From Eledone cirrhosa (taxonomy: Eukaryota): 64,000 bases of DNA. Numbering within the stretch: the first letter of the stretch is position 1; the number at the start of each line of letters is the position of its first letter. The stretch lies in contig OZ024742.1 in the NCBI GenBank assembly GCA_964016885.1, positions 127,968,001-128,032,000 of the forward strand, given 5' to 3'. Below the pieces are notes generated by a model. It was not told the DNA's origin. It did no database searches and worked only from the letters and a program-made list of their open reading frames with translations. Below, in pieces: positions 21,501 to 64,000 of this stretch. Both the position numbers and the translations under genes were made by a program.

Positions 21501-24500
21501 ATGACTTGGTCTGTGTTTAGCTGTCAAACCCTTGCTAGCAGGGAAAACATGACCTGGTCTGTGTCTAGCTGTCAGGCCCTTGCTAGCAGGGAAAACATGA
21601 CTTGGTCTGTGACTAGCTTTCAAACCCTTGCTAGCTGGGAAAACATGACTTGGTCTGTGTCTAGCTGTCAAACCCTCGTTAGCAGAGAAAACATGACCTG
21701 GTCTGTGTTTAGCTGTCAAACCCTTGTTAGCAGGGAAAACATGACTTGGTCTGTGACTAGCTGTCAAACCCTCGTTAGCAGAGAAAACATGACTTGGTCT
21801 GTGTCTAGCTGTCAAACCCTTGTTAGCAGGGAAAACATGACTTGGTCTGTGACTAGCTGTCAAACCCTTGCTAGCTGGAAAAACATGACTTGGTCTGTGA
21901 TTAGCTGTCAAACCCTTGTTAGGAGGGAAAACATGACTTGGTCTGTGTTTAGCTGTCAAACCCTTACTAACAGGGAAAACATGACTTGGTTTGTGTCTAG
22001 CTGTCAAACCCTTGCTAGCCGGGGAGACATGACTTGGTTTGTGTCTAGCTGTCAAACCCTTGCTAGCTGGGAAAACATGACTTGGTCTGTGATTAGCTGT
22101 CAAAGCCTTGTTAGCAGGGAAAACATGACTTGGTCTGTGTCTAACTGTCAAAGCCTTACTAGGAGGGAAAACATGACCTGGTCTGTGTCTAGCTGTCAAA
22201 CCCTTGCTAGCTGGGAAAACATGACCTGGTGTGTGTCTAGCTGTCAAACCCTTGCTAGCAGGGAAAACATGACTTGGTCTGTGTTTAGCTGTCAAACCCT
22301 TACTAACAGGGAAAACATGACTTGGTTTGTGTCTAGCTGTCAAACCCTTGCTAGCTGGGAAAACATGACTTGGTCTGTGATTAGCTGTCAAAGCCTTGTT
22401 AGCAGGGAAAACATGACTTGGTCTGTGTCTAACTGTCAAAGCCTTACCAGGAGGGAAAACATGACCTGGTCTGTGTCTAGCTGTCAAACCCTTGCTAGCT
22501 GGCAAAACATGACCTGGTATGTGTCTAGCTGTCAAACCCTTGCTAGCAGGGAAAACATGACTTGGTCTGTGTCTAGCTGTCAAAGCCTTACTAGGAGGGA
22601 AAACATGACTTGGTCTGTGTCTAGCTGTCAAAGCCTTACTAGCAGGGAAAACATGACTTGTTAGCAAACCCTTGTTAGCAGGGAAAACATGATTAGTTGT
22701 CAAACCCTTGTTAGGAGGGAAAACATGACCTGGTCTGTGCTTAGCTGCCAAACCTTTGCTAGCTGGGAAAACATGACTTGGTCTGTGACTAGCTGTCAAA
22801 CCCTTGTTAGCAGGGAAAACATAACTTGGTCTATGACTAGCTGTCAAACCCTTGCTAGGAGGGAAAACATGACCTGGTCTGTGTTTAGCTGTCAAACCCT
22901 TGCTAGCTGGGAAAACATGACTTGGTCTGTGACTAGCTGTCAAACCCTTGTTAGCAGGGAAAACATGACCTGGTCTGTGTTTAGCTGTCAAACGCTTGCT
23001 AGCAGGGAAAACATGACCTGGTCTGTGTTTAGCTGTCAAACCCATGTTAGCAGGGAAAACATGACTTGGTCTGTGACTAGCTGTCAAACCCTTGCTAGCA
23101 GGGAAAACATGACTTGTTCTGTGTCTAGCTGTCAAACCCATGTGAGCAGGGAAAACATGACTTGGTCTGTGTCTAGCTGTCAAACCCTTGTAAGCAGGAA
23201 AAACATGACTTGTTCTGTGTCTAGCTGTCAAACCCATGTGAGCAGGGAAAACATGACTTGGTCTGTGTCTAGCTGTCAAACCCTTGACAGCAGGAAAAAC
23301 ATGACTTGGTCTGTGTCTAGCTGTCAAACCCTTGTAAGCAGGAAAAACATGACTTGATCTGTGACTAGCTGTCAAACTCTTGCAAGCTGGGAAAACATGA
23401 CTTGGGCTGTGTCTAGCTGTCAAACCCTTGTTGGCAGGGAAAACATGACTTGGTCTGTGACTAGCTGTCAAACCCTTGTTGGCAGGGAAAACATGACTTG
23501 GTCTGTGACTAGCTGTCAAACCCTTGCTAGCTGGGAAAACATGACTTGATCTGTGACTAACTGTTAAACCCTTGTTAGCAGGGAGAACATGACTTGGTCT
23601 GTGTCGAGCTGTCAAACCCTTGCTAGCAGGGAAAACATGACTTGGTCTCTGACTAGCTGTCAAACACTTGCTAGCAGGGAAAACATGACTTGGTCTGTGT
23701 TTAGCTGTCAAACCCTTGCTAGCAGGGAAAACATGACCTGGTCTGTGACTAGCTTTCAAACCCTTGCTAGCTGGGAAAACATGACTTGGTCTGTGTCTAG
23801 CTGTCAAACCCTCGTTAGCAGAGAAAACATGACCTGGTCTGTGTTTAGCTGTCAAACCCTTGTTAGCAGGGAAAACATGACTTGGTCTGTGACTAGCTGT
23901 CAAACCCTCGTTAGCAGAGAAAACATGACTTGGTCTGTGTCTAGCTGTCAAACCCTTGTTAGCAGGGAAAACATGACTTGGTCTGTGACTAGCTGTCAAA
24001 CCCTTGCTAGCTGGAAAAACATGACTTGGTCTGTGATTAGCTGTCAAACCCTTGTTAGGAGGGAAAACATGACTTGGTCTGTGTTTAGCTGTCAAACCCT
24101 TACTAACAGGGAAAACATGACTTGGTTTGTGTCTAGCTGTCAAACCCTTGCTAGCCGGGGAGACATGACTTGGTTTGTGTCTAGCTGTCAAACCCTTGCT
24201 AGCTGGGAAAACATGACTTGGTCTGTGATTAGCTGTCAAAGCCTTGTTAGCAGGGAAAACATGACTTGGTCTGTGTCTAACTGTCAAAGCCTTACTAGGA
24301 GGGAAAACATGACCTGGTCTGTGTCTAGTTGTCAAACCCTTGCTAGCTGGGAAAACATGACCTGGTGTGTGTCTAGCTGTCAAACCCTTGCTAGCAGGGA
24401 AAACATGACTTGGTCTGTGTTTAGCTGTCAAACCCTTACTAACAGGGAAAACATGACTTGGTTTGTGTCTAGCTGTCAAACCCTTGCTAGCTGGGAAAAC

Positions 24501-27500
24501 ATGACTTGGTCTGTGATTAGCTGTCAAAGCCTTGTTAGCAGGGAAAACATGACTTGGTCTGTGTCTAACTGTCAAAGCCTTACCAGGAGGGAAAACATGA
24601 CCTGGTCTGTGTCTAGCTGTCAAACCCTTGCTAGCTGGCAAAACATGACCTGGTATGTGTCTAGCTGTCAAACCCTTGCTAGCAGGGAAAACATGACTTG
24701 GTCTGTGTCTAGCTGTCAAAGCCTTACTAGGAGGGAAAACATGACTTGGTCTGTGTCTAGCTGTCAAAGCCTTACTAGCAGGGAAAACATGACTTGTTAG
24801 CAAACCCTTGTTAGCAGGGAAAACATGATTAGTTGTCAAACCCTTGTTAGGAGGGAAAACATGACCTGGTCTGTGCTTAGCTGCCAAACCTTTGCTAGCT
24901 GGGAAAACATGACTTGGTCTGTGACTAGCTGTCAAACCCTTGTTAGCAGGGAAAACATAACTTGGTCTATGACTAGCTGTCAAACCCTTGCTAGGAGGGA
25001 AAACATGACCTGGTCTGTGTTTAGCTGTCAAACCCTTGCTAGCTGGGAAAACATGACTTGGTCTGTGACTAGCTGTCAAACCCTTGTTAGCAGGGAAAAC
25101 ATGACCTGGTCTGTGTTTAGCTGTCAAACGCTTGCTAGCAGGGAAAACATGACCTGGTCTGTGTTTAGCTGTCAAACCCATGTTAGCAGGGAAAACATGA
25201 CTTGGTCTGTGACTAGCTGTCAAACCCTTGCTAGCAGGGAAAACATGACTTGTTCTGTGTCTAGCTGTCAAACCCATGTGAGCAGGGAAAACATGACTTG
25301 GTCTGTGTCTAGCTGTCAAACCCTTGTAAGCAGGAAAAACATGACTTGTTCTGTGTCTAGCTGTCAAACCCATGTGAGCAGGGAAAACATGACTTGGTTT
25401 GTGTCTAGCTGTCAAACCCTTGACAGCAGGAAACACATGACTTGGTCTGTGTCTAGCTGTCAAACCCTTGTAAGCAGGAAAAACATGACTTGATCTGTGA
25501 CTAGCTGTCAAACTCTTGCAAGCTGGGAAAACATGACTTGGGCTGTGTCTAGCTGTCAAACCCTTGTTGGCAGGGAAAACATGACTTGGTCTGTGACTAG
25601 CTGTCAAACCCTTGTTGGCAGGGAAAACATGACTTGGTCTGTGACTAGCTGTCAAACCCTTGCTAGCTGGGAAAACATGACTTGATCTGTGACTAACTGT
25701 TAAACCCTTGTTAGCAGGGAGAACATGACTTGGTCTGTGTCGAGCTGTCAAACCCTTGCTAGCAGGGAAAACATGACTTGGTCTCTGACTAGCTGTCAAA
25801 CACTTGCTAGCAGGGAAAACATGACTTGGTCTGTGTTTAGCTGTCAAACCCTTGCTAGCAGGGAAAACATGACCTGGTCTGTGACTAGCTTTCAAACCCT
25901 TGCTAGCTGGGAAAACATGACTTGGTCTGTGTCTAGCTGTCAAACCCTCGTTAGCAGAGAAAACATGACCTGGTCTGTGTTTAGCTGTCAAACCCTTGTT
26001 AGCAGGGAAAACATGACCTGGTCTGTGACTAGCTGTCAAAGCCTTGTTAGCAGGGAAAACATGACTTGGTCTCTGACTAGCTGTCAAGCCCTTGCTCGCA
26101 GGGAAAACATGACCTGGTCTGTGTCTAGCTGTCAAACCCTTGCTAGCAGAGAAAACATGACTTGGTCTGTGTCTAGCTGTTAAACCCTTGCTAGCTGGGA
26201 AAACATGACTTGGTCTGTGACTAGCTGTCAAACCCTTGTTAGCAGGGAAAACATAACTTGGTCTATGACTAGCTGTCAAACCCTTGCTAGGAGGGAAAAC
26301 ATGACCTGGTCTGTGTTTAGCTGTCAAACCCTTGCTAGCTGGGAAAACATGACTTGGTCTGTGACTAGCTGTCAAACCCTTGTTAGCAGGGAAAACATGA
26401 CCTGGTCTGTGACTAGCTGTCAAACCCTTGCTAGCAGGGAAAACATGACTTGTTCTGTGTCTAGCTGTCAAACCCATGTGAGCAGGGAAAACATGACTTG
26501 GTCTGTGTCTAGCTGTCAAACCCTTGTAAGCAGGAAAAACATGACTTGTTCTGTGTCTAGCTGTCAAACCCATGTGAGCAGGGAAAACATGACTTGGTCT
26601 GTGTCTAGCTGTCAAACCCTTGACAGCAGGAAAAACATGACTTGTTCTGTGTCTAGCTGTCAAACCCATGTGAGCAGGGAAAACATGACTTGGTCTGTGT
26701 CTAGCTGTCAAACCCTTGTAAGCAGGAAAAACATGACTTGATCTGTGACTAGCTGTCAAACTCTTGCAAGCTGGGAAAACATGACTTGGGCTGTGTCTAG
26801 CTGTCAAACCCTTGTTGGCAGGGAAAACATGACCTGGTCTGTGTCTAGCTGTCAAACCCTTGCTAGCAGGGAAAACATGACCTGGTCTGTGTCTAGCTGT
26901 CAAACCCTTGCTAGCAGGGAAAACATGACTTGGTCTGTGACTAGCTGTCAAACCCTTGCTAGCTGGGAAATCATGACTTGGTCTGTGACTAGCTGTCAAA
27001 CCCTTGCTAGCACGGAAAACATAACTTGATCTGTGACTAGCTGTCAAACCCTTGTTAGCAGGGAAAACATGACTTGGCCTGTGACTAGCTGTCAAACCCT
27101 TGCTAGCAGGGAAAACATGACCTGGTCTGTGTCTAGCTGTCAAAGCGTTGTTAGCAGGGGAAACATGACCTGGTCTGTGTCTAGCTGTCAAACCCTTGTT
27201 AGCAGGGAAACCATGACCTGGTCTGTGTTTAGCTGTCAAGCCCTTGCTAGCAGGGAAAACATGACTTGGTCTGTGTCTAACTGTCAAAGCCTTACTAGGA
27301 GGGAAAACATGACCTGGTCTGTGTTTAGCTGTCAAACCCTTGCTAGCTGGGAAAACATGACTTGGTCTGTGACTAGCTGTCAAACCCTTGTTAGCAGGGA
27401 AAACATGACTAGCTGTCAAACCCTTGCTAGCTGGGAAAACATGACTTGGTCTGTGACTAACTGTTAAACCCTTGTTAGCAGGGAGAACATGACTTGGTCT

Positions 27501-30500
27501 GTGTCGAGCTGTCAAACCCTTGCTAGCAGGGAAAACATGACTTGGTCTGTGTCTAGCTGTCAAGCCCTTGCTTGCAGGGAAAACATAACCTGGTCTGTGT
27601 CTAGCTGTCAAACCCTTGCTAGCAGGGAAAACATGACTTGGTCTGTGACTAGCTGTCAAACCCTTGCTAGCTGGGAAAACATGACTTGGTCTGCGTCTAG
27701 CTGTCAAACCCTTGTTAGGAGGGAAAACATGACTTGGTCTGTGACTAGCTGTCAAACCCTTGTTAGCAGAGAAAACATGACTTGGTCTGTGTTTACCTGT
27801 CAAACCCTTGTTAGGAGGGAAAACATGACTTGGTCTGTGACTAGCTGTCAAACCCTTGCTAGCAGGGAAGTGTCTAGCTGTCAAACCCTTGCTAGCAGGG
27901 AAAACATGACTTGGTCTGTGTCTAGCTGTCAAAGCCTTACTAGGAGGGAAAACATGACTTGGTCTGTGTCTAGCTGTCAAAGCCTTACTAGCAGGGAAAA
28001 CATGACTTGTTAGCAAACCCTTGTTAGCAGGGAAAACATGATTAGTTGTCAAACCCTTGTTAGGAGGGAAAACATGACCTGGTCTGTGCTTAGCTGCCAA
28101 ACCTTTGCTAGCTGGGAAAACATGACTTGGTCTGTGACTAGCTGTCAAACCCTTGTTAGCAGGGAAAACATAACTTGGTCTATGACTAGCTGTCAAACCC
28201 TTGCTAGGAGGGAAAACATGACCTGGTCTGTGTTTAGCTGTCAAACCCTTGCTAGCTGGGAAAACATGACTTGGTCTGTGACTAGCTGTCAAACCCTTGT
28301 TAGCAGGGAAAACATGACCGGGTCTGTGTTTAGCTGTCAAACGCTTGCTAGCAGGGAAAACATGACCTGGTCTGTGTTTAGCTGTCAAACCCATGTTAGC
28401 AGGGAAAACATGACTTGGTCTGTGACTAGCTGTCAAACCCTTGCTAGCAGGGAAAACATGACTTGTTCTGTGTCTAGCTGTCAAACCCATGTGAGCAGGG
28501 AAAACATGACTTGGTCTGTGTCTAGCTGTCAAACCCTTGTAAGCAGGAAAAACATGACTTGTTCTGTGTCTAGCTGTCAAACCCATGTGAGCAGGGAAAA
28601 CATGACTTGGTCTGTGTCTAGCTGTCAAACCCATGTGAGCAGGGAAAACATGACTTGGTCTGTGTCTAGCTGTCAAACCCTTGTAAGCAGGAAAAACATG
28701 ACTTGATCTGTGACTAGCTGTCAAACTCTTGCAAGCTGGGAAAACATGACTTGGGCTGTGTCTAGCTGTCAAACCCTTGTTGGCAGGGAAAACATGACTT
28801 GGTCTGTGACTAGCTGTCAAACCCTTGTTGGCAGGGAAAACATGACTTGGTCTGTGACTAGCTGTCAAACCCTTGCTAGCTGGGAAAACATGACTTGATC
28901 TGTGACTAACTGTTAAACCCTTGTTAGCAGGGAGAACATGACTTGGTCTGTGTCGAGCTGTCAAACCCTTGCTAGCAGGGAAAACATGACTTGGTCTCTG
29001 ACTAGCTGTCAAACAATTGCTAGCAGGGAAAACATGACTTGGTCTGTGTTTAGCTGTCAAACCCTTGCTAGCAGGGAAAACATGACCTGGTCTGTGTCTA
29101 GCTGTCAGGCCCTTGCTAGCAGGGAAAACATGACTTGGTCTGTGACTAGCTTTCAAACCCTTGCTAGCTGGGAAAACATGACTTGGTCTGTGTCTAGCTG
29201 TCAAACCCTCGTTAGCAGAGAAAACATGACCTGGTCTGTGTTTAGCTGTCAAACCCTTGTTAGCAGGGAAAACATGACTTGGTCTGTGACTAGCTGTCAA
29301 ACCCTCGTTAGCAGAGAAAACATGACTTGGTCTGTGTCTAGCTGTCAAACCCTTGTTAGCAGGGAAAACATGACTTGGTCTGTGACTAGCTGTCAAACCC
29401 TTGCTAGCTGGAAAAACATGACTTGGTCTGTGATTAGCTGTCAAACCCTTGTTAGGAGGGAAAACATGACTTGGTCTGTGTTTAGCTGTCAAACCCTTAC
29501 TAACAGGGAAAACATGACTTGGTTTGTGTCTAGCTGTCAAACCCTTGCTAGCCGGGGAGACATGACTTGGTTTGTGTCTAGCTGTCAAACCCTTGCTAGC
29601 TGGGAAAACATGACTTGGTCTGTGATTAGCTGTCAAAGCCTTGTTAGCAGGGAAAACATGACTTGGTCTGTGTCTAACTGTCAAAGCCTTACTAGGAGGG
29701 AAAACATGACCTGGTCTGTGTCTAGCTGTCAAACCCTTGCTAGCTGGGAAAACATGACCTGGTGTGTGTCTAGCTGTCAAACCCTTGCTAGCAGGGAAAA
29801 CATGACTTGGTCTGTGTTTAGCTGTCAAACCCTTACTAACAGGGAAAACATGACTTGGTTTGTGTCTAGCTGTCAAACCCTTGCTAGCTGGGAAAACATG
29901 ACTTGGTCTGTGATTAGCTGTCAAAGCCTTGTTAGCAGGGAAAACATGACTTGGTCTGTGTCTAACTGTCAAAGCCTTACCAGGAGGGAAAACATGACCT
30001 GGTCTGTGTCTAGCTGTCAAACCCTTGCTAGCTGGCAAAACATGACCTGGTATGTGTCTAGCTGTCAAACCCTTGCTAGCAGGGAAAACATGACTTGGTC
30101 TGTGTCTAGCTGTCAAAGCCTTACTAGGAGGGAAAACATGACTTGGTCTGTGTCTAGCTGTCAAAGCCTTACTAGCAGGGAAAACATGACTTGTTAGCAA
30201 ACCCTTGTTAGCAGGGAAAACATGATTAGTTGTCAAACCCTTGTTAGGAGGGAAAACATGACCTGGTCTGTGCTTAGCTGCCAAACCTTTGCTAGCTGGG
30301 AAAACATGACTTGGTCTGTGACTAGCTGTCAAACCCTTGTTAGCAGGGAAAACATAACTTGGTCTATGACTAGCTGTCAAACCCTTGCTAGGAGGGAAAA
30401 CATGACCTGGTCTGTGTTTAGCTGTCAAACCCTTGCTAGCTGGGAAAACATGACTTGGTCTGTGACTAGCTGTCAAACCCTTGTTAGCAGGGAAAACATG

Positions 30501-33500
30501 ACCTGGTCTGTGTTTAGCTGTCAAACGCTTGCTAGCAGGGAAAACATGACCTGGTCTGTGTTTAGCTGTCAAACCCATGTTAGCAGGGAAAACATGACTT
30601 GGTCTGTGACTAGCTGTCAAACCCTTGCTAGCAGGGAAAACATGACTTGTTCTGTGTCTAGCTGTCAAACCCATGTGAGCAGGCAAAACATGACTTGGTC
30701 TGTGTCTAGCTGTCAAACCCTTGTAAGCAGGAAAAACATGACTTGTTCTGTGTCTAGCTGTCAAACCCATGTGAGCAGGGAAAACATGACTTGGTCTGTG
30801 TCTAGCTGTCAAACCCTTGACAGCAGGAAAAACATGACTTGGTCTGTGTCTAGCTGTCAAACCCTTGTAAGCAGGAAAAACATGACTTGATCTGTGACTA
30901 GCTGTCAAACTCTTGCAAGCTGGGAAAACATGACTTGGGCTGTGTCTAGCTGTCAAACCCTTGTTGGCAGGGAAAACATGACTTGGTCTGTGACTAGCTG
31001 TCAAACCCTTGTTGGCAGGGAAAACATGACTTGGTCTGTGACTAGCTGTCAAACCCTTGCTAGCTGGGAAAACATGACTTGATCTGTGACTAACTGTTAA
31101 ACCCTTGTTAGCAGGGAGAACATGACTTGGTCTGTGTCGAGCTGTCAAACCCTTGCTAGCAGGGAAAACATGACTTGGTCTCTGACTAGCTGTCAAACAC
31201 TTGCTAGCAGGGAAAACATGACTTGGTCTGTGTTTAGCTGTCAAACCCTTGCTAGCAGGGAAAACATGACCTGGTCTGTGACTAGCTTTCAAACCCTTGC
31301 TAGCTGGGAAAACATGACTTGGTCTGTGTCTAGCTGTCAAACCCTCGTTAGCAGAGAAAACATGACCTGGTCTGTGTTTAGCTGTCAAACCCTTGTTAGC
31401 AGGGAAAACATGACTTGGTCTGTGACTAGCTGTCAAACCCTCGTTAGCAGAGAAAACATGACTTGGTCTGTGTCTAGCTGTCAAACCCTTGTTAGCAGGG
31501 AAAACATGACTTGGTCTGTGACTAGCTGTCAAACCCTTGCTAGCTGGAAAAACATGACTTGGTCTGTGATTAGCTGTCAAACCCTTGTTAGGAGGGAAAA
31601 CATGACTTGGTCTGTGTTTAGCTGTCAAACCCTTACTAACAGGGAAAACATGACTTGGTTTGTGTCTAGCTGTCAAACCCTTGCTAGCCGGGGAGACATG
31701 ACTTGGTTTGTGTCTAGCTGTCAAACCCTTGCTAGCTGGGAAAACATGACTTGGTCTGTGATTAGCTGTCAAAGCCTTGTTAGCAGGGAAAACATGACTT
31801 GGTCTGTGTCTAACTGTCAAAGCCTTACTAGGAGGGAAAACATGACCTGGTCTGTGTCTAGTTGTCAAACCCTTGCTAGCTGGGAACACATGACCTGGTG
31901 TGTGTCTAGCTGTCAAACCCTTGCTAGCAGGGAAAACATGACTTGGTCTGTGTTTAGCTGTCAAACCCTTACTAACAGGGAAAACATGACTTGGTTTGTG
32001 TCTAGCTGTCAAACCCTTGCCAGCTGGGAAAACATGACTTGGTCTGTGATTAGCTGTCAAAGCCTTGTTAGCAGGGAAAACATGACTTGGTCTGTGTCTA
32101 ACTGTCAAAGCCTTACCAGGAGGGAAAACATGACCTGGTCTGTGTCTAGCTGTCAAACCCTTGCTAGCTGGCAAAACATGACCTGGTATGTGTCTAGCTG
32201 TCAAACCCTTGCTAGCAGGGAAAACATGACTTGGTCTGTGTCTAGCTGTCAAAGCCTTACTAGGAGGGAAAACATGACTTGGTCTGTGTCTAGCTGTCAA
32301 AGCCTTACTAGCAGGGAAAACATGACTTGTTAGCAAACCCTTGTTAGCAGGGAAAACATGATTAGTTGTCAAACCCTTGTTAGGAGGGAAAACATGACCT
32401 GGTCTGTGCTTAGCTGCCAAACCTTTGCTAGCTGGGAAAACATGACTTGGTCTGTGACTAGCTGTCAAACCCTTGTTAGCAGGGAAAACATAACTTGGTC
32501 TATGACTAGCTGTCAAACCCTTGCTAGGAGGGAAAACATGACCTGGTCTGTGTTTAGCTGTCAAACCCTTGCTAGCTGGGAAAACATGACTTGGTCTGTG
32601 ACTAGCTGTCAAACCCTTGTTAGCAGGGAAAACATGACCTGGTCTGTGTTTAGCTGTCAAACGCTTGCTAGCAGGGAAAACATGACCTGGTCTGTGTTTA
32701 GCTGTCAAACCCATGTTAGCAGGGAAAACATGACTTGGTCTGTGACTAGCTGTCAAACCCTTGCTAGCAGGGAAAACATGACTTGTTCTGTGTCTAGCTG
32801 TCAAACCCATGTGAGCAGGGAAAACATGACTTGGTCTGTGTCTAGCTGTCAAACACTTGTAAGCAGGAAAAACATGACTTGTTCTGTGTCTAGCTGTCAA
32901 ACCCATGTGAGCAGGGAAAACATGACTTGGTCTGTGTCTAGCTGTCAAACCCTTGACAGCAGGAAAAACATTACTTGGTCTGTGTCTAGCTGTCAAACCC
33001 TTGTAAGCAGGAAAAACATGACTTGATCTGTGACTAGCTGTCAAACTCTTGCAAGCTGGGAAAACATGACTTGGGCTGTGTCTAGCTGTCAAACCCTTGT
33101 TGGCAGGGAAAACATGACTTGGTCTGTGACTAGCTGTCAAACCCTTGTTGGCAGGGAAAACATGACTTGGTCTGTGACTAGCTGTCAAACCCTTGCTAGC
33201 TGGGAAAACATGACTTGATCTGTGACTAACTGTTAAACCCTTGTTAGCAGGGAGAACATGACTTGGTCTGTGTCGAGCTGTCAAACCCTTGCTAGCAGGG
33301 AAAACATGACTTGGTCTCTGACTAGCTGTCAAACACTTGCTAGCAGGGAAAACATGACTTGGTCTGTGTTTAGCTGTCAAACCCTTGCTAGCAGGGAAAA
33401 CATGACCTGGTCTGTGACTAGCTTTCAAACCCTTGCTAGCTGGGAAAACATGACTTGGTCTGTGTCTAGCTGTCAAACCCTCGTTAGCAGAGAAAACATG

Positions 33501-36500
33501 ACCTGGTCTGTGTTTAGCTGTCAAACCCTTGTTAGCAGGGAAAACATGACCTGGTCTGTGACTAGCTGTCAAAGCCTTGTTAGCAGGGAAAACATGACTT
33601 GGTCTCTGACTAGCTGTCAAGCCCTTGCTCGCAGGGAAAACATGACCTGGTCTGTGTCTAGCTGTCAAACCCTTGCTAGCAGAGAAAACATGACTTGGTC
33701 TGTGTCTAGCTGTTAAACCCTTGCTAGCTGGGAAAACATGACTTGGTCTGTGACTAGCTGTCAAACCCTTGTTAGCAGGGAAAACATAACTTGGTCTATG
33801 ACTAGCTGTCAAACCCTTGCTAGGAGGGAAAACATGACCTGGTCTGTGTTTAGCTGTCAAACCCTTGCTAGCTGGGAAAACATGACTTGGTCTGTGACTA
33901 GCTGTCAAACCCTTGTTAGCAGGGAAAACATGACCTGGTCTGTGACTAGCTGTCAAACCCTTGCTAGCAGGGAAAACATGACTTGTTCTGTGTCTAGCTG
34001 TCAAACCCTCGTTAGCAGAGAAAACATGACCTGGTCTGTGTTTAGCTGTCAAACCCTTGTTAGCAGGGAAAACATGACTTGGTCTGTGACTAGCTGTCAA
34101 ACCCTCGTTAGCAGAGAAAACATGACTTGGTCTGTGTCTAGCTGTCAAACCCTTGTTAGCAGGAAAAACATGACTTGTTCTGTGTCTAGCTGTCAAACCC
34201 ATGTGAGCAGGGAAAACATGACTTGGTCTGTGTCTAGCTGTCAAACCCTTGTAAGCAGGAAAAACATGACTTGATCTGTGACTAGCTGTCAAACTCTTGC
34301 AAGCTGGGAAAACATGACTTGGGCTGTGTCTAGCTGTCAAACCCTTGTTGGCAGGGAAAACATGACCTGGTCTGTGTCTAGCTGTCAAACCCTTGCTAGC
34401 AGGGAAAACATGACCTGGTCTGTGTCTAGCTGTCAAACCCTTGCTAGCAGGGAAAACATGACTTGGTCTGTGACTAGCTGTCAAACCCTTGCTAGCTGGG
34501 AAATCATGACTTGGTCTGTGACTAGCTGTCAAACCCTTGCTAGCACGGAAAACATAACTTGATCTGTGACTAGCTGTCAAACCCTTGTTAGCAGGGAAAA
34601 CATGACTTGGCCTGTGACTAGCTGTCAAACCCTTGCTAGCAGGGAAAACATGACCTGGTCTGTGTCTAGCTGTCAAAGCGTTGTTAGCAGGGGAAACATG
34701 ACCTGGTCTGTGTCTAGCTGTCAAACCCTTGTTAGCAGGGAAACCATGACCTGGTCTGTGTTTAACTGTCAAGCCCTTGCTAGCAGGGAAAACATGACTT
34801 GGTCTGTGTCTAACTGTCAAAGCCTTACTAGGAGGGAAAACATGACCTGGTCTGTGTTTAGCTGTCAAACCCTTGCTAGCTGGGAAAACATGACTTGGTC
34901 TGTGACTAGCTGTCAAACCCTTGTTAGCAGGGAAAACATGACTAGCTGTCAAACCCTTGCTAGCTGGGAAAACATGACTTGGTCTGTGACTAACTGTTAA
35001 ACCCTTGTTAGCAGGGAGAACATGACTTGGTCTGTGTCGAGCTGTCAAACCCTTGCTAGCAGGGAAAACATGACTTGGTCTGTGTCTAGCTGTCAAGCCC
35101 TTGCTTGCAGGGAAAACATAACCTGGTCTGTGTCTAGCTGTCAAACCCTTGCTAGCAGGGAAAACATGACTTGGTCTGTGACTAGCTGTCAAACCCTTGC
35201 TAGCTGGGAAAACATGACTTGGTCTGCGTCTAGCTGTCAAACCCTTGTTAGGAGGGAAAACATGACTTGGTCTGTGACTAGCTGTCAAACCCTTGTTAGC
35301 AGAGAAAACATGACTTGGTCTGTGTTTACCTGTCAAACCCTTGTTAGGAGGGAAAACATGACTTGGTCTGTGACTAGCTGTCAAACCCTTGCTAGCAGGG
35401 AAGTGTCTAGCTGTCAAACCCTTGCTAGCAGGGAAAACATGACTTGGTCTGTGTCCAGCTGTCAAATCCTCGTTAGCAGAGAAAACATGACTTGGTCTGT
35501 GTCTAACTGTCAAACCCTTGTAAGCAGGAAAAACATGACTTGATCTGTGACTAGCTGTCAAACTCTTGCAAGCTGGGAAAACATGACTTGGGCTGTGTCT
35601 AGCTGTCAAACCCTTGTTGGCAGGGAAAACATGACCTGGTCTGTGTCTAGCTGTCAAACCCTTGCTAGCAGGGAAAACATGACCTGGTCTGTGTCTAGCT
35701 GTCAAACCCTTGCTAGCAGGGAAAACATGACTTGGTCTGTGACTAGCTGTCAAACCCTTGCTAGCTGGGAAATCATGACTTGGTCTGTGACTAGCTGTCA
35801 AACCCTTGCTAGCAGGGAAAACATAACTTGATCTGTGACTAGCTGTCAAACCCTTGTTAGCAGGGAAAACATGACTTGGCCTGTGACTAGCTGTCAAACC
35901 CTTGCTAGCAGGGAAAACATGGCCTGGTCTGTGTCTAGCTGTCAAAGCGTTGTTAGCAGGGGAAACATGACCTGGTCTGTGTCTAGCTGTCAAACCCTTG
36001 TTAGCAGGGAAACCATGACCTGGTCTGTGTTTAGCTGTCAAGCCCTTGCTAGCAGGGAAAACATGACTTGGTCTGTGTCTAACTGTCAAAGCCTTACTAG
36101 GAGGGAAAACATGACTTGGTCTGTGTTTAGCTGTCAAACCCTTGCTAGCTGGGAAAACATGACTTGGTCTGTGACTAGCTGTCAAACCCTTGTTAGCAGG
36201 GAAAACATGACTAGCTGTCAAACCCTTGCTAGCTGGGAAAACATGACTTGGTCTGTGACTAACTGTTAAACCCTTGTTAGCAGGGAGAACATGACTTGGT
36301 CTGTGTCGAGCTGTCAAACCCTTGCTAGCAGGGAAAACATGACTTGGTCTGTGTCTAGCTGTCAAGCCCTTGCTCGCAGGGAAAACATAACCTGGTCTGT
36401 GTCTAGCTGTCAAACCCTTGCTAGCAGGGAAAACATGACTTGGTCTGTGACTAGCTGTCAAACCCTTGCTAGCTGGGAAAACATGACTTGGTCTGCGTCT

Positions 36501-36937
36501 AGCTGTCAAACCCTTGTTAGGAGGGAAAACATGACTTGGTCTGTGACTAGCTGTCAAACCCTTGTTAGCAGAGAAAACATGACTTGGTCTGTGTTTACCT
36601 GTCAAACCCTTGTTAGGAGGGAAAACATGACTTAGTCTGTGACTAGCTGTCAAACCCTTGCTAGCAGGGAAGTGTCTAGCTGTCAAACCCTTGCTAGCAG
36701 GGAAAACATGACTTGGTCTGTGTCCAGCTGTCAAACCCTCGTTAGCAGAGAAAACATGACTTGGTCTGTGTCTAACTGTCAAACCCTTGTTAGCAGGAAA
36801 AACATGACTTAGTCTGTGAAACCCTTGTTTGTAGGGAAAACATGACTTGGTCTGTGTCTAGCTGTTAAACCCTTGCTAGCTGGGAAAACATGACCTGATC
36901 TGTGTCTAGCTGTCAAACACTTGCCAGCTGGGAAAAC
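18551..36937. repeat. 48-bp minisatellite array, about 380 units, with higher-order repeats
   Basis: Consensus TGACTTGGTCTGTGTCTAGCTGTCAAACCCTTGCTAGCAGGGAAAACA. Variant units recur at offsets 2184, 2136, 7533 and 1269 bp, visible in ORF-track starts such as 20505/22689/24825/28038/30222/32358 and 35022/36291. Confidence 0.98.
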
Positions 36938-37254
36938 AGACATGGTGATGATGATAGATCCTCAGCACACGACTCTATTTGTCTTAGTTAACCCAGACAA
37001 AAAGTAACATCATTCTTATTTCACCACAAATAGTTAGTGTTACAAACTGAAAATAATGATATGTGGTTTTTATTTTAATAGTCTTGCTATTATTCATTGT
37101 TAAACTACAATAATCTCTAATTTATTTTTATAAGAATATTTAGCCATGCTTTAAAACTGCTTTTTATGAACAAGTCAGCTTTATGATAAAGATCCTCCCC
37201 ACTTCACATAATACAGCAGAGAGGGCTCTTCAGTCAAATCAACGACTGACAACT

Positions 37255-54420: not shown

Positions 54421-54544
54421 TATATATAAACATTATATATATATACATACACATTATCATCATCACCATCATCATCTTCGTTTAACGTCCATTTTCCACG
54501 CTTGCATGGGTTCATTGTGTATATATATATATATATATATAAAA

Positions 54545-55511
54545 TACTAGCTCTTTCAACTGCGCAGGGGGTTCTATAGAAATAGTGGACAGCTTCCGTT
54601 ACCTGGGTGACAAAATCAGCAGTGGGGGAGGGTGCTCTGAAAGTACAGTAGCTAGAGTCAGAACTGGATGGAAAATGTTCAGAGAGCTTATACCACTATT
54701 AGCCGCTAAAGGGTTCTCTAAAAATGAAAGGCAGGTTGTATGATGCCTGCATACGAACAGCAATGTTACATGGCAGTGAGACCTGGGCATTGTGTGCAGA
54801 GGATATACGCAGACTAGAGAGGAACAAAGCTTGCATGCTCCGCTGGATGTGTAATAGTAATATACGTGAACGGCAAAGCATTAACGAACTAAGGGAAAAA
54901 TTAGAAATAAGAGGGATCAGATGTTGTGTACTCGAGAGAAGGCTACGTTGGTATGGTCACGTGATGCGCATGAAAGACGACAGCTGTATATCAAAGTGCA
55001 GGGCAATAAAGATAGACGGTAGCTACAGAGTAGGCAGACCCAGAAAAACCTGGGACGAGCTGATAAATTCTGACCTCACACACTTACACCTCTCCAAGAC
55101 AATGTCACTGGACCGAGACCTTTGGCGGTACTCAGTAATAGAGAAGACCCGCCTTACCTAAATACAAAGTAAAACCTACTACAGTCAGTAGGCACCTCTA
55201 ACAAAATACACCCCCGTCCCACCACCCCCACCTCATCCACACCGCCCCTTTCAATGTAAAGTTATGTTGGTACCACAACATCCAGGCCGAAACAAATGAG
55301 GTCGTGTAGGTGTCACGACAAAAAAAACACAGTCCACGCTGTAATGTGGCCGTGTAGGTAACACGGTAAAAACCTCCCAGTCCCACACTGTAAATGTGGT
55401 TGGTGTTAGGAAGGGCATCCAGCTGTAGAAAACCCGCCAGACAGTCCTATGCGAGCAAGTGGGAAAACTCCCGTCCAAATCCATGCAAGCGTGGAATGTG
55501 GACGTTAAACA

Positions 55512-55565: not shown

Positions 55566-56677
55566 TATCATCATCATCTTTTAACGTCTGTTCTTCCATG
55601 CTAGAATGGGCTAGATGGGTTGTCCTGTTGTGGGCAGTGTCCAATCAGCTGACCTTGTCTTGCTCATACGGGAACTGATTCTGGCTTGATTTCTACAGCT
55701 GGATGCCCTTCCTAACACCAACCACATTTACAGTGAGTGCTGGGTGATTTTTTCCGTGACACCTACACGTCCACTTTACAGTGTGGGCTGGGTGCTTTTT
55801 TGCAGTTGCACCTCTCCGACCACTTTGCAGTGGGAGGGTGTGGGGCATATTGTCTATATGCTTCAGCTTCGGCTTGTTCCTGTGGGAGTTCGGGCCTTTT
55901 GTATTACTGCGTGACGCCAGAGGTCACGGTGGTGTGTCATTGCTCTTGAGAGGTGCAATTGGGTAAGGTCGGCCTTTATCACCTCATCCCAGGTCTTCTT
56001 GCATCTCCCCACTCCACGGCTTCCATCGACTTCTAGTGCCCAACACCTTTTTATGCAGCTGTCATCCTTCATACACATCACATGTCCATACCAATGTAAC
56101 CTCCACTCCTGCACACAGCATTTGATTCCTCTTACGCTCAGTCTCTCTCTCAGTTCGTTTATACTTTGCCATTTGTGTATATTACTATTACACATCCATC
56201 GGAGCATGCAGGCTTCGTTTCTTTCTAATCTACGCAAGTCTTCTACAGACAGTGCCCAGGTCTCACTACCATGTAACATTGCTGTTCGTATACACGCATC
56301 ATACAATCTGCCTTTCATTTTGAGGGAAAAGCCTTTTGCAGCTAGCAGTAGCAGTAGCTCCCTGAACTTCTTCCATCCCATTCTTACCCTACTTATTGTA
56401 CATTCCGAACACCCACCTCCGCTGCTAATTCAGTCACCTAGGTAGCAGAAGCTGTCTAGTGTTTCTACAGAGCCCTCCCAGAGTTTGGTGGTACTTGTTT
56501 CCTGTGGCTGTTTGAGGCTTGCTGTCCCAGCGCACCTGCTACATATAAAGCCTACATTCTTAGTTAAACTTCCTGAGATCCCGCTACATCTCTTGTGTAC
56601 CCACTGTTTGCATTTGGGGCAGAGGATGGAGTTCCTACCTACACCTTTCCTACATACTGAGCAAGGGCATTTCCCAT
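55566..56677 (-). mobile_element. RTE LINE 3' fragment (family B)
   Basis: Colinear with 13999-15030; ORF 55863-56381. Confidence 0.92.
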
Positions 56678-56819
56678 TATATATATATATATATCATCAT
56701 CATCATCACATATTATATATATAGATATATACACACACACATTATATATATATATACACACATTATATATATATATATATATACACACATTATATATATA
56801 TATATATATATACACACAC

Positions 56820-56860
<41 letters not shown>

Positions 56861-56881
56861 TATATATATATATATATATAT

Positions 56882-56924
<43 letters not shown>

Positions 56925-56992
56925 TTATATATATATATATATACACACACATTATATATATATATATATATACACATTATATATATATATAT

Positions 56993-57025
<33 letters not shown>

Positions 57026-57030
57026 CACAC

Positions 57031-57069
<39 letters not shown>
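56678..57069. repeat. Compound (TA)n/(CA)n microsatellite
   Basis: Repeating TATATA...CACACAT units ending in pure (TA)n. Confidence 0.95.
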
Positions 57070-57072
<3 letters not shown>

Positions 57073-57200
57073 AAAGTTCTATTTAAAATTGTTGGGATAC
57101 AACAAGTAAATATTTTTATAACTGATATAAAGCACTCGACAAGTATTTGGAGTAGATATACAATATTAATAAATGGAAGCTATATTTATAAAACCATATT

Positions 57201-57265
57201 TATTTCATTATACATATTTCAGGGATACCAAATTAAATTATGGTATGCCTTCATCAGACAAAATA
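57201..57265 (-). ncRNA. Minimal type-I hammerhead ribozyme motif
   Basis: Minus strand reads TATTTTGT-CTGATGA-AGGCATACCA(taatttaatt)TGGTATCCCT-GAAA-TATGT-ATA^ATGAAATA. Stem I has 8 pairs including two G-U; stem II has 9 of 10 pairs. Confidence 0.78.
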
Positions 57266-57855
57266 CAATATATAACAGTTTTACAAATAAGCTTTGACGT
57301 ACCCTTTTAAAATGCAACCATTATTTTTGGAAGCCATCCGGATAGTGAGTTGTTTATATTATTTTAATAAGTCATAGTGTTAAGGACAATTAGAAAAAGA
57401 CGGAGAGAGAGAGATAGAAAAAACGTGGAGAAATATCGGAGAGAGAGAAATGCATGGAGAAAAAAGAAAGAGATAAATAAAGACAGGAGGAAAGAAAGAA
57501 AAAAGAAAAAAGTAAGAAATAAGAAAAACAGAGGAAAGCAACAGAGAGATATTAAGTCATCAGACAGATAGAAAAACTCAAGAGAGAGAAATATTATATA
57601 GAGAGAGGGGGAGATAATGAAAACTTTACGTCATGTCATATTAAGTTGAGTTAACAATTTATATGAAATGAATAATAAAAATATAAATATTAATATTCAT
57701 GAATGGGACATAGATATATAATATGAGAAATTAAACATTGTTTAATAATGACTATATGTTTAGTTTAAAACTTGAGATCAATATACCAAAATTTTGGGTT
57801 TAATCATCCAAAATGTACACATTGCTAGAGAAATCAGTATCTTAGGCAAAGACAC

Positions 57856-57905
<50 letters not shown>

Positions 57906-58962
57906 GTCCTGAAAATAGAAATTATATTTACTCAAGTCAACAATATAGACATACAAAACGCAGACGATTTCTCTTAATCACTGCTATACATTCCTTGTGT
58001 TATAAAAAGTTCACAGTACATATACATAAATATACGATTACCATTCATGTCTTCATATATACGATTACCATTCATGCATTTAACATTCTATTAAAATTAT
58101 GCATATCTGCAATCAAAACTGCGTGGTTAGGCAACATATCTCTTACCCACACACATACATATACAAATATATATATACACATATATATGTATAAATAAAT
58201 ATTTGCGTGCGTCTTCACGCATCACTCATGTATACATACAGACATATATACAATCATAAAAAACCTATAACACTTATATGCATGTTAATACACACATACA
58301 CATTTGTATAGAGATAATCAAATATCAATATATTACTAAGGATTATACTTTGGAAATATAATTATAACAATATAAATTTAAAATACCAATGGATTATATT
58401 TTGGAAATACAATTATATTAGTATAGTCAAAAGGACAAACGAATTCTAGAAATATCAAAGCATTAAATATCTTTAAAACACTATAGAGTATCTTAAGTTA
58501 AAATAATGTTTCATATCTTTAGTATAGAAATTTATCCTACGTATATTTCAATCAAGATATTGAAAGGGTAGACTTATGAAAATTATGAGAAGCTATCAGA
58601 ATCAAAACAAAACTAATAAAAATAAAAAAATAAAATAAAAAAAATGAAATAAAAATAAAAGTTAAATAAATATTATATCAATATAATTTAAAAATTAAAA
58701 AATTTAAAAAATTAAAAAATTAAAAAAATTTTTTAAATTAAAAAATTTAAAAAACCCAAGGATTCTACAGATATCCTTATATTTAGTATAGAAATTTATC
58801 TTACGTATATTTTATTTAAGACATTGGAAGTATAGACATTTTAGGGTAGTTTATTATATCTATGTTTATATTTAGGAAGAAAGTTTAAAAAGAAAAAGGT
58901 GAAGGAATCTAATGATTTATCGACAGGTTTCATATATTAACTAAATTACTTAATTAATTATA

Positions 58963-60846
58963 CTACATTTTAAATTTATATTTAAACGTTGAGTTCAATC
59001 TATGTCTGCAGCAACTGAATAAATTGTTCCTTAAATTAAGGGAATTTTTGGACTTTAATATAAAGAATATTTCTTCAATACAAAGATCACAATTTTCTGA
59101 AGAGGAATTAAAAGGAGTAGCTTTTGAAATAATATTCCAAGTCATCGAATATTTAACATTATCTCGTTTTAGGTCCCATAGTAGGCTAGATAGCGAAGTT
59201 GAAGATTTTTTGTTTGGATCTGTGAAAGAATTTTTATGATTATTGAAGCGAAATTTAAATTCTGTAGAGGTAGAACCAACATAGTTAAATGAATTTAAAT
59301 TAGTTTTAACATTACAATTGTACACTACATTTTTAGCTAAGCAGTTGTTATTTAACGGACAGTTAGATTTATTTCTACAGTTACAGTTATTCAATTGAAT
59401 ATTGCTTGGGTTATTATTGGTATTTTGGTTAGGTTTTAAATTTCTATTATTAATTCTATTAATATTTTGTGCTAAATTTTTGGTGGACGAGTAAGTTAAT
59501 TTTATAGTGTGTCTATTAAAAATTGAGTAATATTTATGTGTTCTAGGGAAGCGTTTGTCAAGAGCTTTAAAGAATAGTTTAGCAATCGGGGTTTTAATAT
59601 TTAGTGAGAAAGGGGGAGCAAACCATAATATATTTCTAGTTCTATTTCTTTTTCGGCTTTTGGAATTATTGTAATGTTTTCTATTATAGTTGTTAAAGTT
59701 GTTACCATAATTAAAATTGTTATTATTTTGGTTAGTTTGCTTATTATTATTATTATCAATGTATTTAATTTTATTTCTATATCCAGCTCTACTTAACGCT
59801 TTGTTGTAATACTGCGCTTTTTCATCAAATATATTTTTATTAGATGAAATTCTTGAAATTCTTTCTTGAACAGAGTTCACTATAGTATTTTTAACAGATC
59901 TGGGGTGATTAGAGTTAAAATTAACATAATTCAAGTTCTCATTTAGTTTGTGAAATGGATAATGAAGACATGTGTTGAGATTTAGTGTTACGTCAAGAAA
60001 ATTGACTATTTTATGGTTATTCTCTATTTCTACTTTTAGATTAAGGTAATTAAAAAATCGTATAATTTGTTTTCTTTTTCTATTTAGTTCACAGCTATTA
60101 TTTTGTATAAGTAAAAGCATGTCATCACGATATAAGCCTCTGGTTACACCTGGTATTTTTCTATGTAGCGAATTAATTATAAATAGGCCCACAAGATCCG
60201 TTACCTGAGCTGAGTCTGATGATCCCATAGTTATGTCGAAATTATTATTTCTATCTGCCCTAGTCCAGACTTGGTTATTAAATTTTATCAATGTTTTCCT
60301 TGCCGATAATATAATGTGCATTTCATTGCTAGTTAGGTCTGTATGTTTAAATGTGTAATTTAGTGCCTTATTCAGTAGATTAGGAGTGATAGATGAATAG
60401 TAGTTAGCAATATCCAGCTGAATAAACTTATTATTATAGTTATATTTAATTTCTTTAAACCAATCGATAACCTCACTAGTCCCTTTCCATAATTTTAAGT
60501 AAGATAAATTAGGTAAGTTTTTAATTTGTTGTATTACCCTGTCTAGAATATTCTTGCTAAGTTTGCCCAGGTCAGATTTAGATGGTGCAATTAATCTGAC
60601 TGGTAAATCATTTTCAAAGTTTCTTTTGTGATCCTTCATATTGATCTTAGGTTTCCTAGGCATGAAGGGTTGTGTTTTATTCTCAATGTCTAATTCATGC
60701 ATTATACAAGATGCATCTGTATTCAGTTTTTCAAGTTCGTCCTTATTTGCTACCTTGTACTTTTTCCTTAGTTCTTTCAATATAAGGTCGTTATAAATGT
60801 CCTTTTGTATTCCATAAAGATTATTAGTTTTGTCCGACTTCACTAG
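58963..60846 (-). CDS. Penelope-like reverse transcriptase with C-terminal GIY-YIG endonuclease; uninterrupted, N-terminally truncated
   Basis: VKSDKTNNLY, QLDIANYYSSI, MGSSDSAQVTDLVG, GLYRDD, VNFLDVTLNL, SNHP, WFAPPFS, CNCRNKSNCPL, VVY...YVG, RFNNH, CDLC, CRH. Confidence 0.93.
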   Translation of the reverse strand, partial: LVKSDKTNNLYGIQKDIYNDLILKELRKKYKVANKDELEKLNTDASCIMHELDIENKTQPFMPRKPKINMKDHKRNFENDLPVRLIAPSKSDLGKLSKNILDRVIQQIKNLPNLSYLKLWKGTSEVIDWFKEIKYNYNNKFIQLDIANYYSSITPNLLNKALNYTFKHTDLTSNEMHIILSARKTLIKFNNQVWTRADRNNNFDITMGSSDSAQVTDLVGLFIINSLHRKIPGVTRGLYRDDMLLLIQNNSCELNRKRKQIIRFFNYLNLKVEIENNHKIVNFLDVTLNLNTCLHYPFHKLNENLNYVNFNSNHPRSVKNTIVNSVQERISRISSNKNIFDEKAQYYNKALSRAGYRNKIKYIDNNNNKQTNQNNNNFNYGNNFNNYNRKHYNNSKSRKRNRTRNILWFAPPFSLNIKTPIAKLFFKALDKRFPRTHKYYSIFNRHTIKLTYSSTKNLAQNINRINNRNLKPNQNTNNNPSNIQLNNCNCRNKSNCPLNNNCLAKNVVYNCNVKTNLNSFNYVGSTSTEFKFRFNNHKNSFTDPNKKSSTSLSSLLWDLKRDNVKYSMTWNIISKATPFNSSSENCDLCIEEIFFILKSKNSLNLRNNLFSCCRHRLNSTFKYKFKM

Positions 60847-60905
60847 AATCACACCTAGCACGCACGAACATTAGGAAAACTAGGGAAGGTTTCGAAGCAA
60901 TTAAA

Positions 60906-61471
60906 ATGGCAGTTAACCACCAGCAACCGACTACACTGGAAAATGGGCAACATAATAGCATCAATGAGCCATCTAATGATATAGAGGCACCTAGTGATAA
61001 TGCTAGTAACCAAAGTTCAGGAGGCACGCTAACTAATCGAACCCGCAGTTGCAATTGTAGGCGGAGTAGTAATTGTCCCCTAAGGGGGGATTGCCTCATG
61101 AAAAACATTGTATATGCATGTGGGGTAACAACACACAACTCTACCAAAACATATATAGGAGTAACGTCCAATACATTTAAAACTAGATTTAACGTGCATA
61201 TGTACACATTTAGACACGATAGACATAAGAATGCCACCTCACTGGCGGTATACATCTCCTTTTTAAAAAATAATAGTACCCCATACAAACTTTTTTGGAG
61301 GAAGCTTACTAGATCCACGCCATACCAACCGCAGAGCGGGAGTGGTGACCTGTGTTTACTGGAATGCAATGCCATAATACACTCTAAACTGAACCTGCTT
61401 AATAGGAAATTTTCTCCTCTTGCCAACACAAAATCCTGAGTTCCTTCTTCTATTTTAAACCTAGCACATAG
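60906..61471 (+). pseudogene. Divergent Penelope-type GIY-YIG endonuclease without an RT, frameshifted near its C-terminus
   Basis: CNCRRSSNCPL..DCL..NIVY...YIG.T...FKTRFNVH...TSL. GDLC replaces CDLC. The terminal SSCQHKILSSFFYFK lies in another frame after about 61410 (stop at 61469-61471). Confidence 0.82.
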
Positions 61472-61592
61472 ACGTAACATATATTACGCAACCCCCACCT
61501 AGACATACCCCTCCTTGACTATAGCTTCCCCCCCAACCCGTAACCCAGATAGATAGGTAGCCTAAGGGTGGAACAGTCCCCTACAAGGTTGG

Positions 61593-61905
61593 TGTTTGTG
61601 TGTTTGTGTATGTGTGTGTATGTGTGTGTATGTGTGTGTATGTGTGTGTATGTGTGTGTGTGTATTCTCCTTTTCTCTCTCACACACACAAACATATGTA
61701 TATATGTGTGCGTACGTGTGTGCATGCATGCATCCATATGTGCGTGTATTGTATACATGTATATTGTATATATATGTATATTGTATGCATGTGTATTATA
61801 TTGTGTGTATGTGTATATGTGATATGTATGTGTATATATGTATGTGTATATGTGTGTATGTGTATATGTGTGTGTATGATGTGTATATATGTGTATATGT
61901 ATGTA
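61593..61905. repeat. (TG/TA)n low-complexity tract
   Basis: TGTGTGTGTA repeats and degenerate TA/TG runs. Confidence 0.9.
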
Positions 61906-63051
61906 TATTTTTTTCTGTAGAAGTCTTCTCTATATGTGGTGTTTGGCATGAATTCCTCCTATAATACTCTTCTTTGAGAGGAGCACGATATGTAGAGTAA
62001 CACATATGTATTGTCGAAGTTGAAACTGAGAACCACCACCCCTCCTGCTGACCCAAATGTTTACTGAGGACCAGAACACCATTCTCCGCAATATAAGAGA
62101 GGAATGCGCTTGCCGGACTATTGATGACCATAACATCACATTCCAAGGTAATGGCAAAACACAGTGAATACTAAACACGATCAGAACACCACAACATGCA
62201 CATCGGAGCAACAGAGATATAATATCAATAAGCAAATCAATTGAATTTTTTGAGTTGAAATACATATAAATATGTGTCTGTGTGTATCGGACACACGTAC
62301 ACATAAAGAAACTGCTGACCTAAATGTACCTGTCATGCCTGTCTGAATTCCTAAGAGAATTTTCGGTCAGTTACTATCTTGACCGATTACCCTCACAATT
62401 ACTACGTAGCGGTTCTTGCACATGACTGCTGAACCTGGATGAAATGAAGACGAAGAATTTCCTTGCGTACCGTTTTGTACCACAGATGCGATCTCACTCT
62501 GCCTCGTTAATGTTCAATCGACTCCAAAGTTCTATGTTCGGGGCAATAGAATTGAATCCAACCACCGACAACATAGTTGGATGACCGATAATCACACCAA
62601 ACCGTAGTACTGTGATCCTTGTGATTTCGAGATATACAACCACTGACACTGTTACGAAGACCAGAAAACCATACTCCAAAATATTGAACCAAGTGATTGA
62701 TTTGTGCGACCAAAATAACACCACACACATATTGAACTAGGAATATTGGATCCTCCGTCAATGTCTGGGTGAGCAAAAATAGATTTCTATCTGCACTGGA
62801 ATTTACGAACTTGTGCATCTGCTGTGGTGTCAAAAACAAACGCACATGACCGCACAGATGAACAATGGACTATGCCACGTGGCTTGAACCTGCAAGTGAA
62901 TTGAAGGATGTGTAACTCTGATATACAGATTATTTATTATTAAGATGTATAAACTTGACATAACTATTATCATCTTATATTCTCTCAACTAATCACATTT
63001 GATTATATTTCTCTATCCCGTTTTCTCCCCCCATATTTATATTTTTATTTG

Positions 63052-63087
<36 letters not shown>

Positions 63088-63600
63088 GGTTTTTTTTTTT
63101 ACATTGTATTTTCCCCTTCAAATACTTGCTTATATTTCTTTATATATTCTCTATATATTTTTTTATATATATTTTTTATCTTTATTCTTATTTTCACTTT
63201 TATCCTCCTCTATATTTTACCTTATTCTTACTTTTATACCTTATTATAGTGTAATCTTCCCCATGCTTTAGTATACATTATTAATTATAGATTATTACTC
63301 TTTTTCCATTTCTAATTACCTCATGTACTTTCTCCTCCGTTATATATATATTGTATGCCCTTTGTGTGCGTGTAGCCTCTGCACACCCTCTGCACCCTAC
63401 TATCGACGCCACCCCATCTATGGCTCAAGTAACCACTCGACTCCCGGGAATGAATATGACCGCAGCTAATAAACAAGGACCCACATCCCACCCTCCCGCA
63501 CCAAAATTAGACTTATCGTCCCTTACTTTTGCTCTTTACTCTCTTTACTCTTTGTTCTTGAATGTTTGGTTGGTAGAGTACATAACACCAATCAAACCCC

Positions 63601-63660
63601 TTTTATAGCTCTGACGAATCCTACGGTTACGTAAGGAAGAAACATTGTAGGCCAATAAAA
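63601..63660 (+). ncRNA. Minimal type-I hammerhead ribozyme motif
   Basis: TTTTATAGCT-CTGACGA-ATCCTACG(GTTA)CGTAAGGAA-GAAA-CATT-GTA^GGCCAATAAAA. Stem I is GCT/GGC plus TTTTAT/ATAAAA. The stem II closing position is an A-A mismatch. Confidence 0.62.
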
Positions 63661-63795
63661 ATCTTTTGATGTTGTAGACGCTCTTGTGTTCTTTATCATA
63701 TATACGGCTCTGCTCCAAAGCATAGAGCTAATTATTATGCTGCCAATACCTTAATGGGACACGGGTATACAATACCTAACTCCTATTAACCTAAG

Positions 63796-63796
<1 letters not shown>

Positions 63797-63854
<58 letters not shown>

Positions 63855-64000
63855 CACACACATATATATATATATACATACATACATATATATACACACA
63901 TATATATATATATATATACATATATACATACACATATATATATATATATATATACATATATACATACACATACATATATATACATACATATATACATACA
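63797..64000. repeat. (TA)n/(TACA)n microsatellite
   Basis: Pure (TA)n followed by TA/CA mix to the window end. Confidence 0.95.

Follow-up and report, generated by a model that had tools for sequence, protein, structure and literature searches.

How did two Penelope-like elements (PLEs) that are not inverted copies of each other come to lie head to head, each with a hammerhead motif facing outwards? The question is raised by a block at the right-hand end of the window, by which we mean the whole stretch of 64,000 nucleotides of the Eledone cirrhosa genome that was analysed (assembly GCA_964016885.1, contig OZ024742.1, positions 127,968,001 to 128,032,000, forward strand). An earlier note on this DNA offered two answers, one ambisense element or a co-integration of two PLE RNAs; the first was refuted, while the second stands as the best explanation, unproven and with sequential insertion as a close rival.

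The block occupies positions 57070-63798 and, as had been described, is enclosed on both sides by degenerate (TA)n: a (TA)n/(CA)n array at 56678-57069, on the target side of the left arm, and a (TA)n array at 63799-64000 which runs on for ~1.2 kb past the window, up to a LINE. This LINE (in locus L031 from ~3200) and the LINE fragments at 54543-55161 and 55863-56693 are presumably RTE-like; they lie on both sides of the block and adjoin TA and (CAT)n repeats. A nested insertion was considered and rejected, the missing 5' part of either arm being absent from the sequence to the left of the block and from the 4 kb to its right. Elsewhere in the window, positions 18551-36946 hold an 18-kb satellite array made of 48-nt units with a higher-order structure.

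The left arm (arm A, 57070-60849, minus strand) is a copy of a PLE family, A, which has been 5'-truncated, lacking ~the first 95 codons, and in which the long form of the 3' end is complete. Translation of the window gave a stop-free minus-strand frame for reverse transcriptase (RT) and endonuclease (EN) at 58963-60870, in agreement with the RT and GIY-YIG reading frame first proposed for this arm; the part of it within the arm (58963-60849) encodes the RT, a CxCx5C linker and a GIY-YIG-type EN in 628 codons plus a stop. Pfam returned nothing for arm A, and its RT carries SDKT, a change from DKG to DKT. An exact 27-mer from the 3' end of family A occurs at least 3844 times in the genome. When the A side of the block was searched, 39 other matches were found to end at or just before 60849 (40 scored of ~2500 candidates), and most of the A-side matches run on into the N-terminus of family A itself. 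The starts of many short A copies cluster within ~25 nt of a single site at a small palindrome (reference near window 57330-57346), and such copies frequently bear an inverted arm.

The right arm (arm B, 60848-63798, plus strand) belongs to a second family, B, and is also 5'-truncated with its long 3' end complete. We could corroborate that the arms are not inverted copies: their EN domains are 40% identical, and GC content is ~15-36% in the minus arm versus mostly 33-43% in the plus arm. The plus-strand EN frame (60828-61439) holds a linker and EN without an RT, and it had been put forward as a possible accessory nuclease gene. This proved not to be so. All of the other B loci fetched (29/29) extend upstream in the B sense into B's own ORF, and at most of them the upstream RT is ~50% identical to the arm A protein; in the B copy L016 RT and EN share one frame, with one stop inside the EN. 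The EN-only ORF is equivalent to the last ~200 codons of this longer RT-EN ORF (60849-61439, comprising the end of the thumb region, the linker and the EN), and its ATG at 60906 lies within the coding sequence of family B, as an internal codon. Other B copies have the RT in frame ahead of the EN, so what looked like an EN-only gene is a remnant left by truncation, and a gene annotation is unwarranted. Relative to L016 the remnant is frameshifted at its C-terminus and has one CxxC cysteine changed, and the Pfam search of the block gave it a weak GIY-YIG match (E = 0.0099) below the cut-off. SDKT was also found in family B (copy L104), and an exact 27-mer from the B 3' end has at least 747 occurrences in the genome. 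One B subfamily has a SINE-like insert of ~190 nt in its 3' region which was retained through further transposition (L075, L076, L085, L088, L093 and L118).

A minimal hammerhead core reads outward at each end of the block, as was originally observed. The A core (CUGAUGA, stem II, GAAA) lies at 57257-57217 on the minus strand, 147 nt inside the block end, and the B core (CUGACGA, stem II, GAAA) at 63611-63642 on the plus strand, 156 nt inside. The core motif sits at a fixed place in 126 A ends and 115 B ends; stem II varies among them, and the variants in A include a compensatory pair. Rfam reported neither hammerhead, only microsatellite-driven microRNA noise, and single-strand folding of the two was not significant (z = -0.84 and -0.19). 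The hammerhead labels are therefore to be read as assignments by core motif, in comparison with Craig et al. 2021, and by conservation across the 126 and 115 ends, with cleavage putative. Each family has two alternative 3' termini, at 57070 and 57153 in A (~83 nt apart) and at 63704 and 63798 in B (94 nt apart). The inner terminus is TATA-like, and the pattern fits the optional PLE tail and internal initiation.

The gap of ~60 bp that had been placed between the arms does not exist: they meet with no spacer and overlap by 2 nt (AT, 60848-60849), a microhomology common to both. In a search with the junction region, 40 other matches all begin exactly at window position 60848 (40 scored of ~2400 candidates). 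A query covering 4.9 kb of the block gave no second composite among the 40 scored of ~10600 candidates, and the same junction was found in none of the other scored matches of the junction, A-side and 4.9-kb queries (40 scored each). This was the outcome of the genome search that the note had proposed for telling its two answers apart: the arms occur separately and in high copy. The outward symmetry by itself would suit a single ambisense mobile element in which both polarities carry a ribozyme and an accessory nuclease has a gene of its own, and stand-alone GIY-YIG genes are known in rotifer Terminons, as passages of PMC6431247 describe. However, each arm is a common family which travels alone, other B loci continue into their own upstream ORF, the junction recurs in no scored match and the EN remnant is frameshifted, so the single-element reading is refuted and we give it practically no credence. 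As judged from sequence comparison, the block is made up of truncated copies of two separate high-copy, Hydra-like PLE families, joined at their cut 5' ends.

Both families match the Hydra clade of PLEs in motifs, hammerhead and target, on the basis of motifs read by eye from translations. With the clade, as parts of PMC8557442 describe it, they have in common DKT, the CxCx5C linker, the hammerhead, (TA)n targeting, CxxC and CxH around the EN and the absence of CCHH, as well as a single ORF with RT and C-terminal GIY-YIG EN. The N-terminal RWK motif given in the same parts of that paper is RWR in A (L049) and in B (L104), in a region outside the truncated window arms. The clade is there described as generally <3 kb, whereas family A is ~4.2 kb between repeats and family B >4.4 kb, and both reach thousands of copies.

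We surveyed 173 insertions of the two families, drawn from the first 100 listed 3' ends per family on contig C1 only. For B this gave 91 loci, all of which were fetched; for A it gave 82 insertions, made up of 64 singletons, which were all fetched, and 18 closely paired sites. Five of these pairs were fetched as well, and 13 were scored as self-inverted from coordinates alone. Classes were assigned by BLAST and then by hand. A junction survey of family F4 (27 of 30 loci) and the junctions of families E, F, F5 and F13 were kept outside all counts, having too little flank or no clear resolution. An inverted arm of the insertion's own family, from ~12 nt to several kb long, was found at the 5' end of ~55-58 of the 82 A insertions (L158, L161 and L177 being doubtful calls) and 30 of the 91 B insertions. 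The head-to-head arrangement with outward hammerheads at (TA)n is the commonest structure in the sample (~85-88 of 173). With self head-to-head copies this frequent, outward hammerheads at both ends are ordinary and priming at both ends is routine.

In 17 self-inverted pairs the arms overlap by 200 nt or more. The two arms are each other's closest copy in 9 of the 17 and fall within the nearest tenth in 13 of the 17, and they share variants private to the pair; it should be noted that the L138, L158 and L171 pairs may include a wrong neighbouring copy, of which L171 is within the 17 and the other two fall under the 200-nt cut. Both arms of self-inverted copies would thus usually come from one source. 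Arms of different subfamilies within a same-family insertion are clear at L129 (177 nt overlap) and less certain at L173. In three loci (L073, L079 and L202) we saw an inverted copy of the target flank around the TA run, as if a broken end had folded back.

The TA arrays of this genome are crowded PLE hotspots. At least 23 families of hammerhead-bearing ends adjoining (TA)n were clustered from ~1 Mb of sequence (loci L001-L181). One family, F13 (L108:6900-7945, that is G000:C1:173844873-173845918, and L294-L307), has at least 11 copies without a difference over 1046 nt and ~40 whose rounded identity is 100%, many of them arranged in tandem or as inverted pairs, and going by this identity it is probably active now. 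Two further hammerhead-bearing families, F12 (period ~530 nt) and F20, form head-to-tail tandem units like animal non-LTR retrozymes (L170:640-1200, G000:C5:61317647-61319887 and L190:7150-7850).

Direct head-to-head joins to an inverted copy of another family were found in 10 of the 173 insertions, with no TA spacer and with the 3' side of the partner at (TA)n. Four have an A anchor (L125, L147, L150 and L170) and six a B anchor (L070, L095, L107, L108, L114 and L197); L075 is a probable further case, outside the 10. Direct same-orientation joins were found in five (L145, L163, L178, L190 and L192). Four loci were considered and left out of the join counts (L124, L159, L088 and L184), and L212, with a (TA)4 spacer, was not counted. 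The partners at L147 and L150 encode Hydra-like endonucleases, and no hammerhead core was detected in them; the partners at six other cross-family joins have a core, and the partner at L114 is a 35-nt repeated TA-anchored end in which no core was found. Junction overlaps are 1-5 nt in 7 of the 10 joins and in L075, with inserts of ~5-19 nt in the rest, and they resemble those of the 61 self-inverted junctions measured, which are mostly 0-6 nt. In a search of the main texts of open-access articles we found no account of cross-family head-to-head PLE joins, and their recurrence between different PLE families is a new observation.

An assembly chimera, or an inversion or translocation breakpoint that joined elements from different sites, could in principle produce such a block. 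Three sequencing runs of one sample contain the repeats, and no listed contig or read from four runs spans the junction; two L1 intermediates at different loci can also recombine, according to PMC13526784. The read result is uninformative, as repeats make short contigs collapse and the remaining runs are reduced-representation. Moreover, the window lies within a 379-Mb contig and like joins exist at 10 other loci, and we consider this origin very improbable. No alternative haplotype of the left flank was found among 40 scored candidates in the assembly.

As a control for orientation, we read the sequence beyond 194 TA runs bordering the same A and B copies. This gave 34 PLE 3' ends facing the run, 140 cases with nothing recognised and 20 'plus' matches, of which ~5 are true 5' ends and the rest trace to TATA within the anchor itself, to SINE-like repeats or to unrecognised 3' ends. 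The finding that 34 of 194 runs have another PLE 3' end directly beyond them speaks for two independent insertions in one (TA)n hotspot, in which a microhomology deletion, later or during the second insertion, would have taken out the TA spacer together with the inner portions of the elements (for example B first and then A, or the collapse of neighbouring self-inverted palindromes). Microhomology deletions in PLEs are reported in part of PMC3846280, and direct joins to non-PLE flanks were also seen in our loci; we hold sequential insertion to be a serious possibility, at rather less than even odds. Since neighbours mostly face each other by their 3' ends, however, a short deletion after sequential insertion should yield mostly same-orientation joins, and the counts are the opposite. 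The 10 head-to-head and 5 same-orientation joins differ from the ~5 and 34 of the control (Fisher P = 0.0002; P = 0.004 with the head-to-head null doubled, either arm being a possible anchor), in a comparison where, for unknown families, a 5' end is more easily missed than a 3' end. If deletions passed through the neighbour's near arm, the expectation would come close to 50:50, which a ratio of 10:5 does not reject (P = 0.15). The excess of head-to-head joins over the geometry of TA-separated neighbours favours co-integration.

Sequential insertion also draws on the ages of the arms. Private changes were found at 6 of 1718 non-CpG sites in window arm A (0.35%) and 13 of 1491 in arm B (0.87%; P = 0.065, or P = 0.012 with CpG sites), so that arm B looks older, by ~2.5 times; an earlier, smaller comparison had given 0.43% and ~0.5%. 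Three of five other pairs have compatible ages (L147 0.73/0.37%, L150 0.91/0.81% and L170 2.8/3.9%), while the arms of L108 are unequal (3/451 vs 0/1046, 0.67/0%, P = 0.027) and L107 shows a tendency in that direction (9/571 vs 0/178, 1.6/0%, P = 0.12), anchor and partner being sometimes scored against non-equivalent sets. Against this, variants that the two arms of an insertion share with no other copy amount to 17 of 6650 compared sites in B and 36 of 6346 in A, and such source-specific variants add ~0.3-0.6% noise which can mimic an age gap; nor was any TA remnant found at the junction. Locus L145, where the near arm of a near-identical young self-inverted copy is fused to an A copy that is older, is a worked example showing that secondary joins, sequential or by deletion, do occur.

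The reading we prefer, with a probability of roughly 55%, is co-integration, in which two different PLE RNAs were primed on opposite strands of one (TA)n break. The self-complementary (TA)n array would be cut by the endonuclease on both strands, and both 3'-OH ends would prime target-primed reverse transcription, one on an A RNA and one on a B RNA; synthesis of the two cDNAs would then end prematurely, and their far ends would anneal by microhomology. In the usual case both ends would copy RNA from one source and give a self-inverted PLE, and in ~6% of insertions the second arm would be of another family. The purified protein of an anole element, PAc, acts on both strands, which it cuts and extends, and a dimer is predicted for it (in passages of PMC11167929), and by analogy we infer that the present clade may share this both-strand activity. 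It should also be noted that the one-source arms of self-inverted copies show a strong cis preference, which counts against co-integration.

The inverted arm of PLEs has been described before. Inverted 5'-truncated arms, or an inverted pLTR, are a known PLE trait (parts of PMC8557442), and the copies described there and in passages of PMC3846280 share with the present block the head-to-head arms, the outward 3' ends, the optional tail and the microhomology join. The self-inverted model does not describe this site, where the inverted arm is of a different family. Head-to-head PLE repeats were ascribed, in the same passages of PMC3846280, to self-priming on an antisense template; self-priming of this kind cannot give a heterologous arm. 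L1 twin priming and joins of two L1 intermediates likewise involve two primed ends with cDNAs joined mid-way, but twin priming uses one RNA and non-overlapping segments. The two-intermediate joins, as part of PMC13526784 presents them, involve distinct loci and are promoted by homology, while the present join has 2 nt. Terminons, in the passages of PMC6431247 already cited, share hammerheads and an EN without RT, whereas the EN here is a truncation remnant. The block is not a new kind of element; it is a previously undescribed form of a known insertion structure.

How tandem and inverted PLE structures arise is, according to part of PMC8557442, still an open question. Tentatively, at just under even odds, we suggest that in PLE integration the two strands of a single break are both primed, each on its own RNA; templates from one source would yield the hallmark inverted repeat, and the cross-family chimeras (~6%, with partners that include other PLE types and a tandem retrozyme-like family) would be in vivo proof of two RNAs sharing a break. 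Head-to-head joins that recur between families would mean that neither self-priming nor fold-back is the sole route, and they would tie the in vitro both-strand activity of PLEs to genomic products, giving a countable signature in genomes rich in PLE families. If the joins are instead deletion products, they would provide a measure of the rate at which palindromic PLE clusters collapse in (TA)n arrays.
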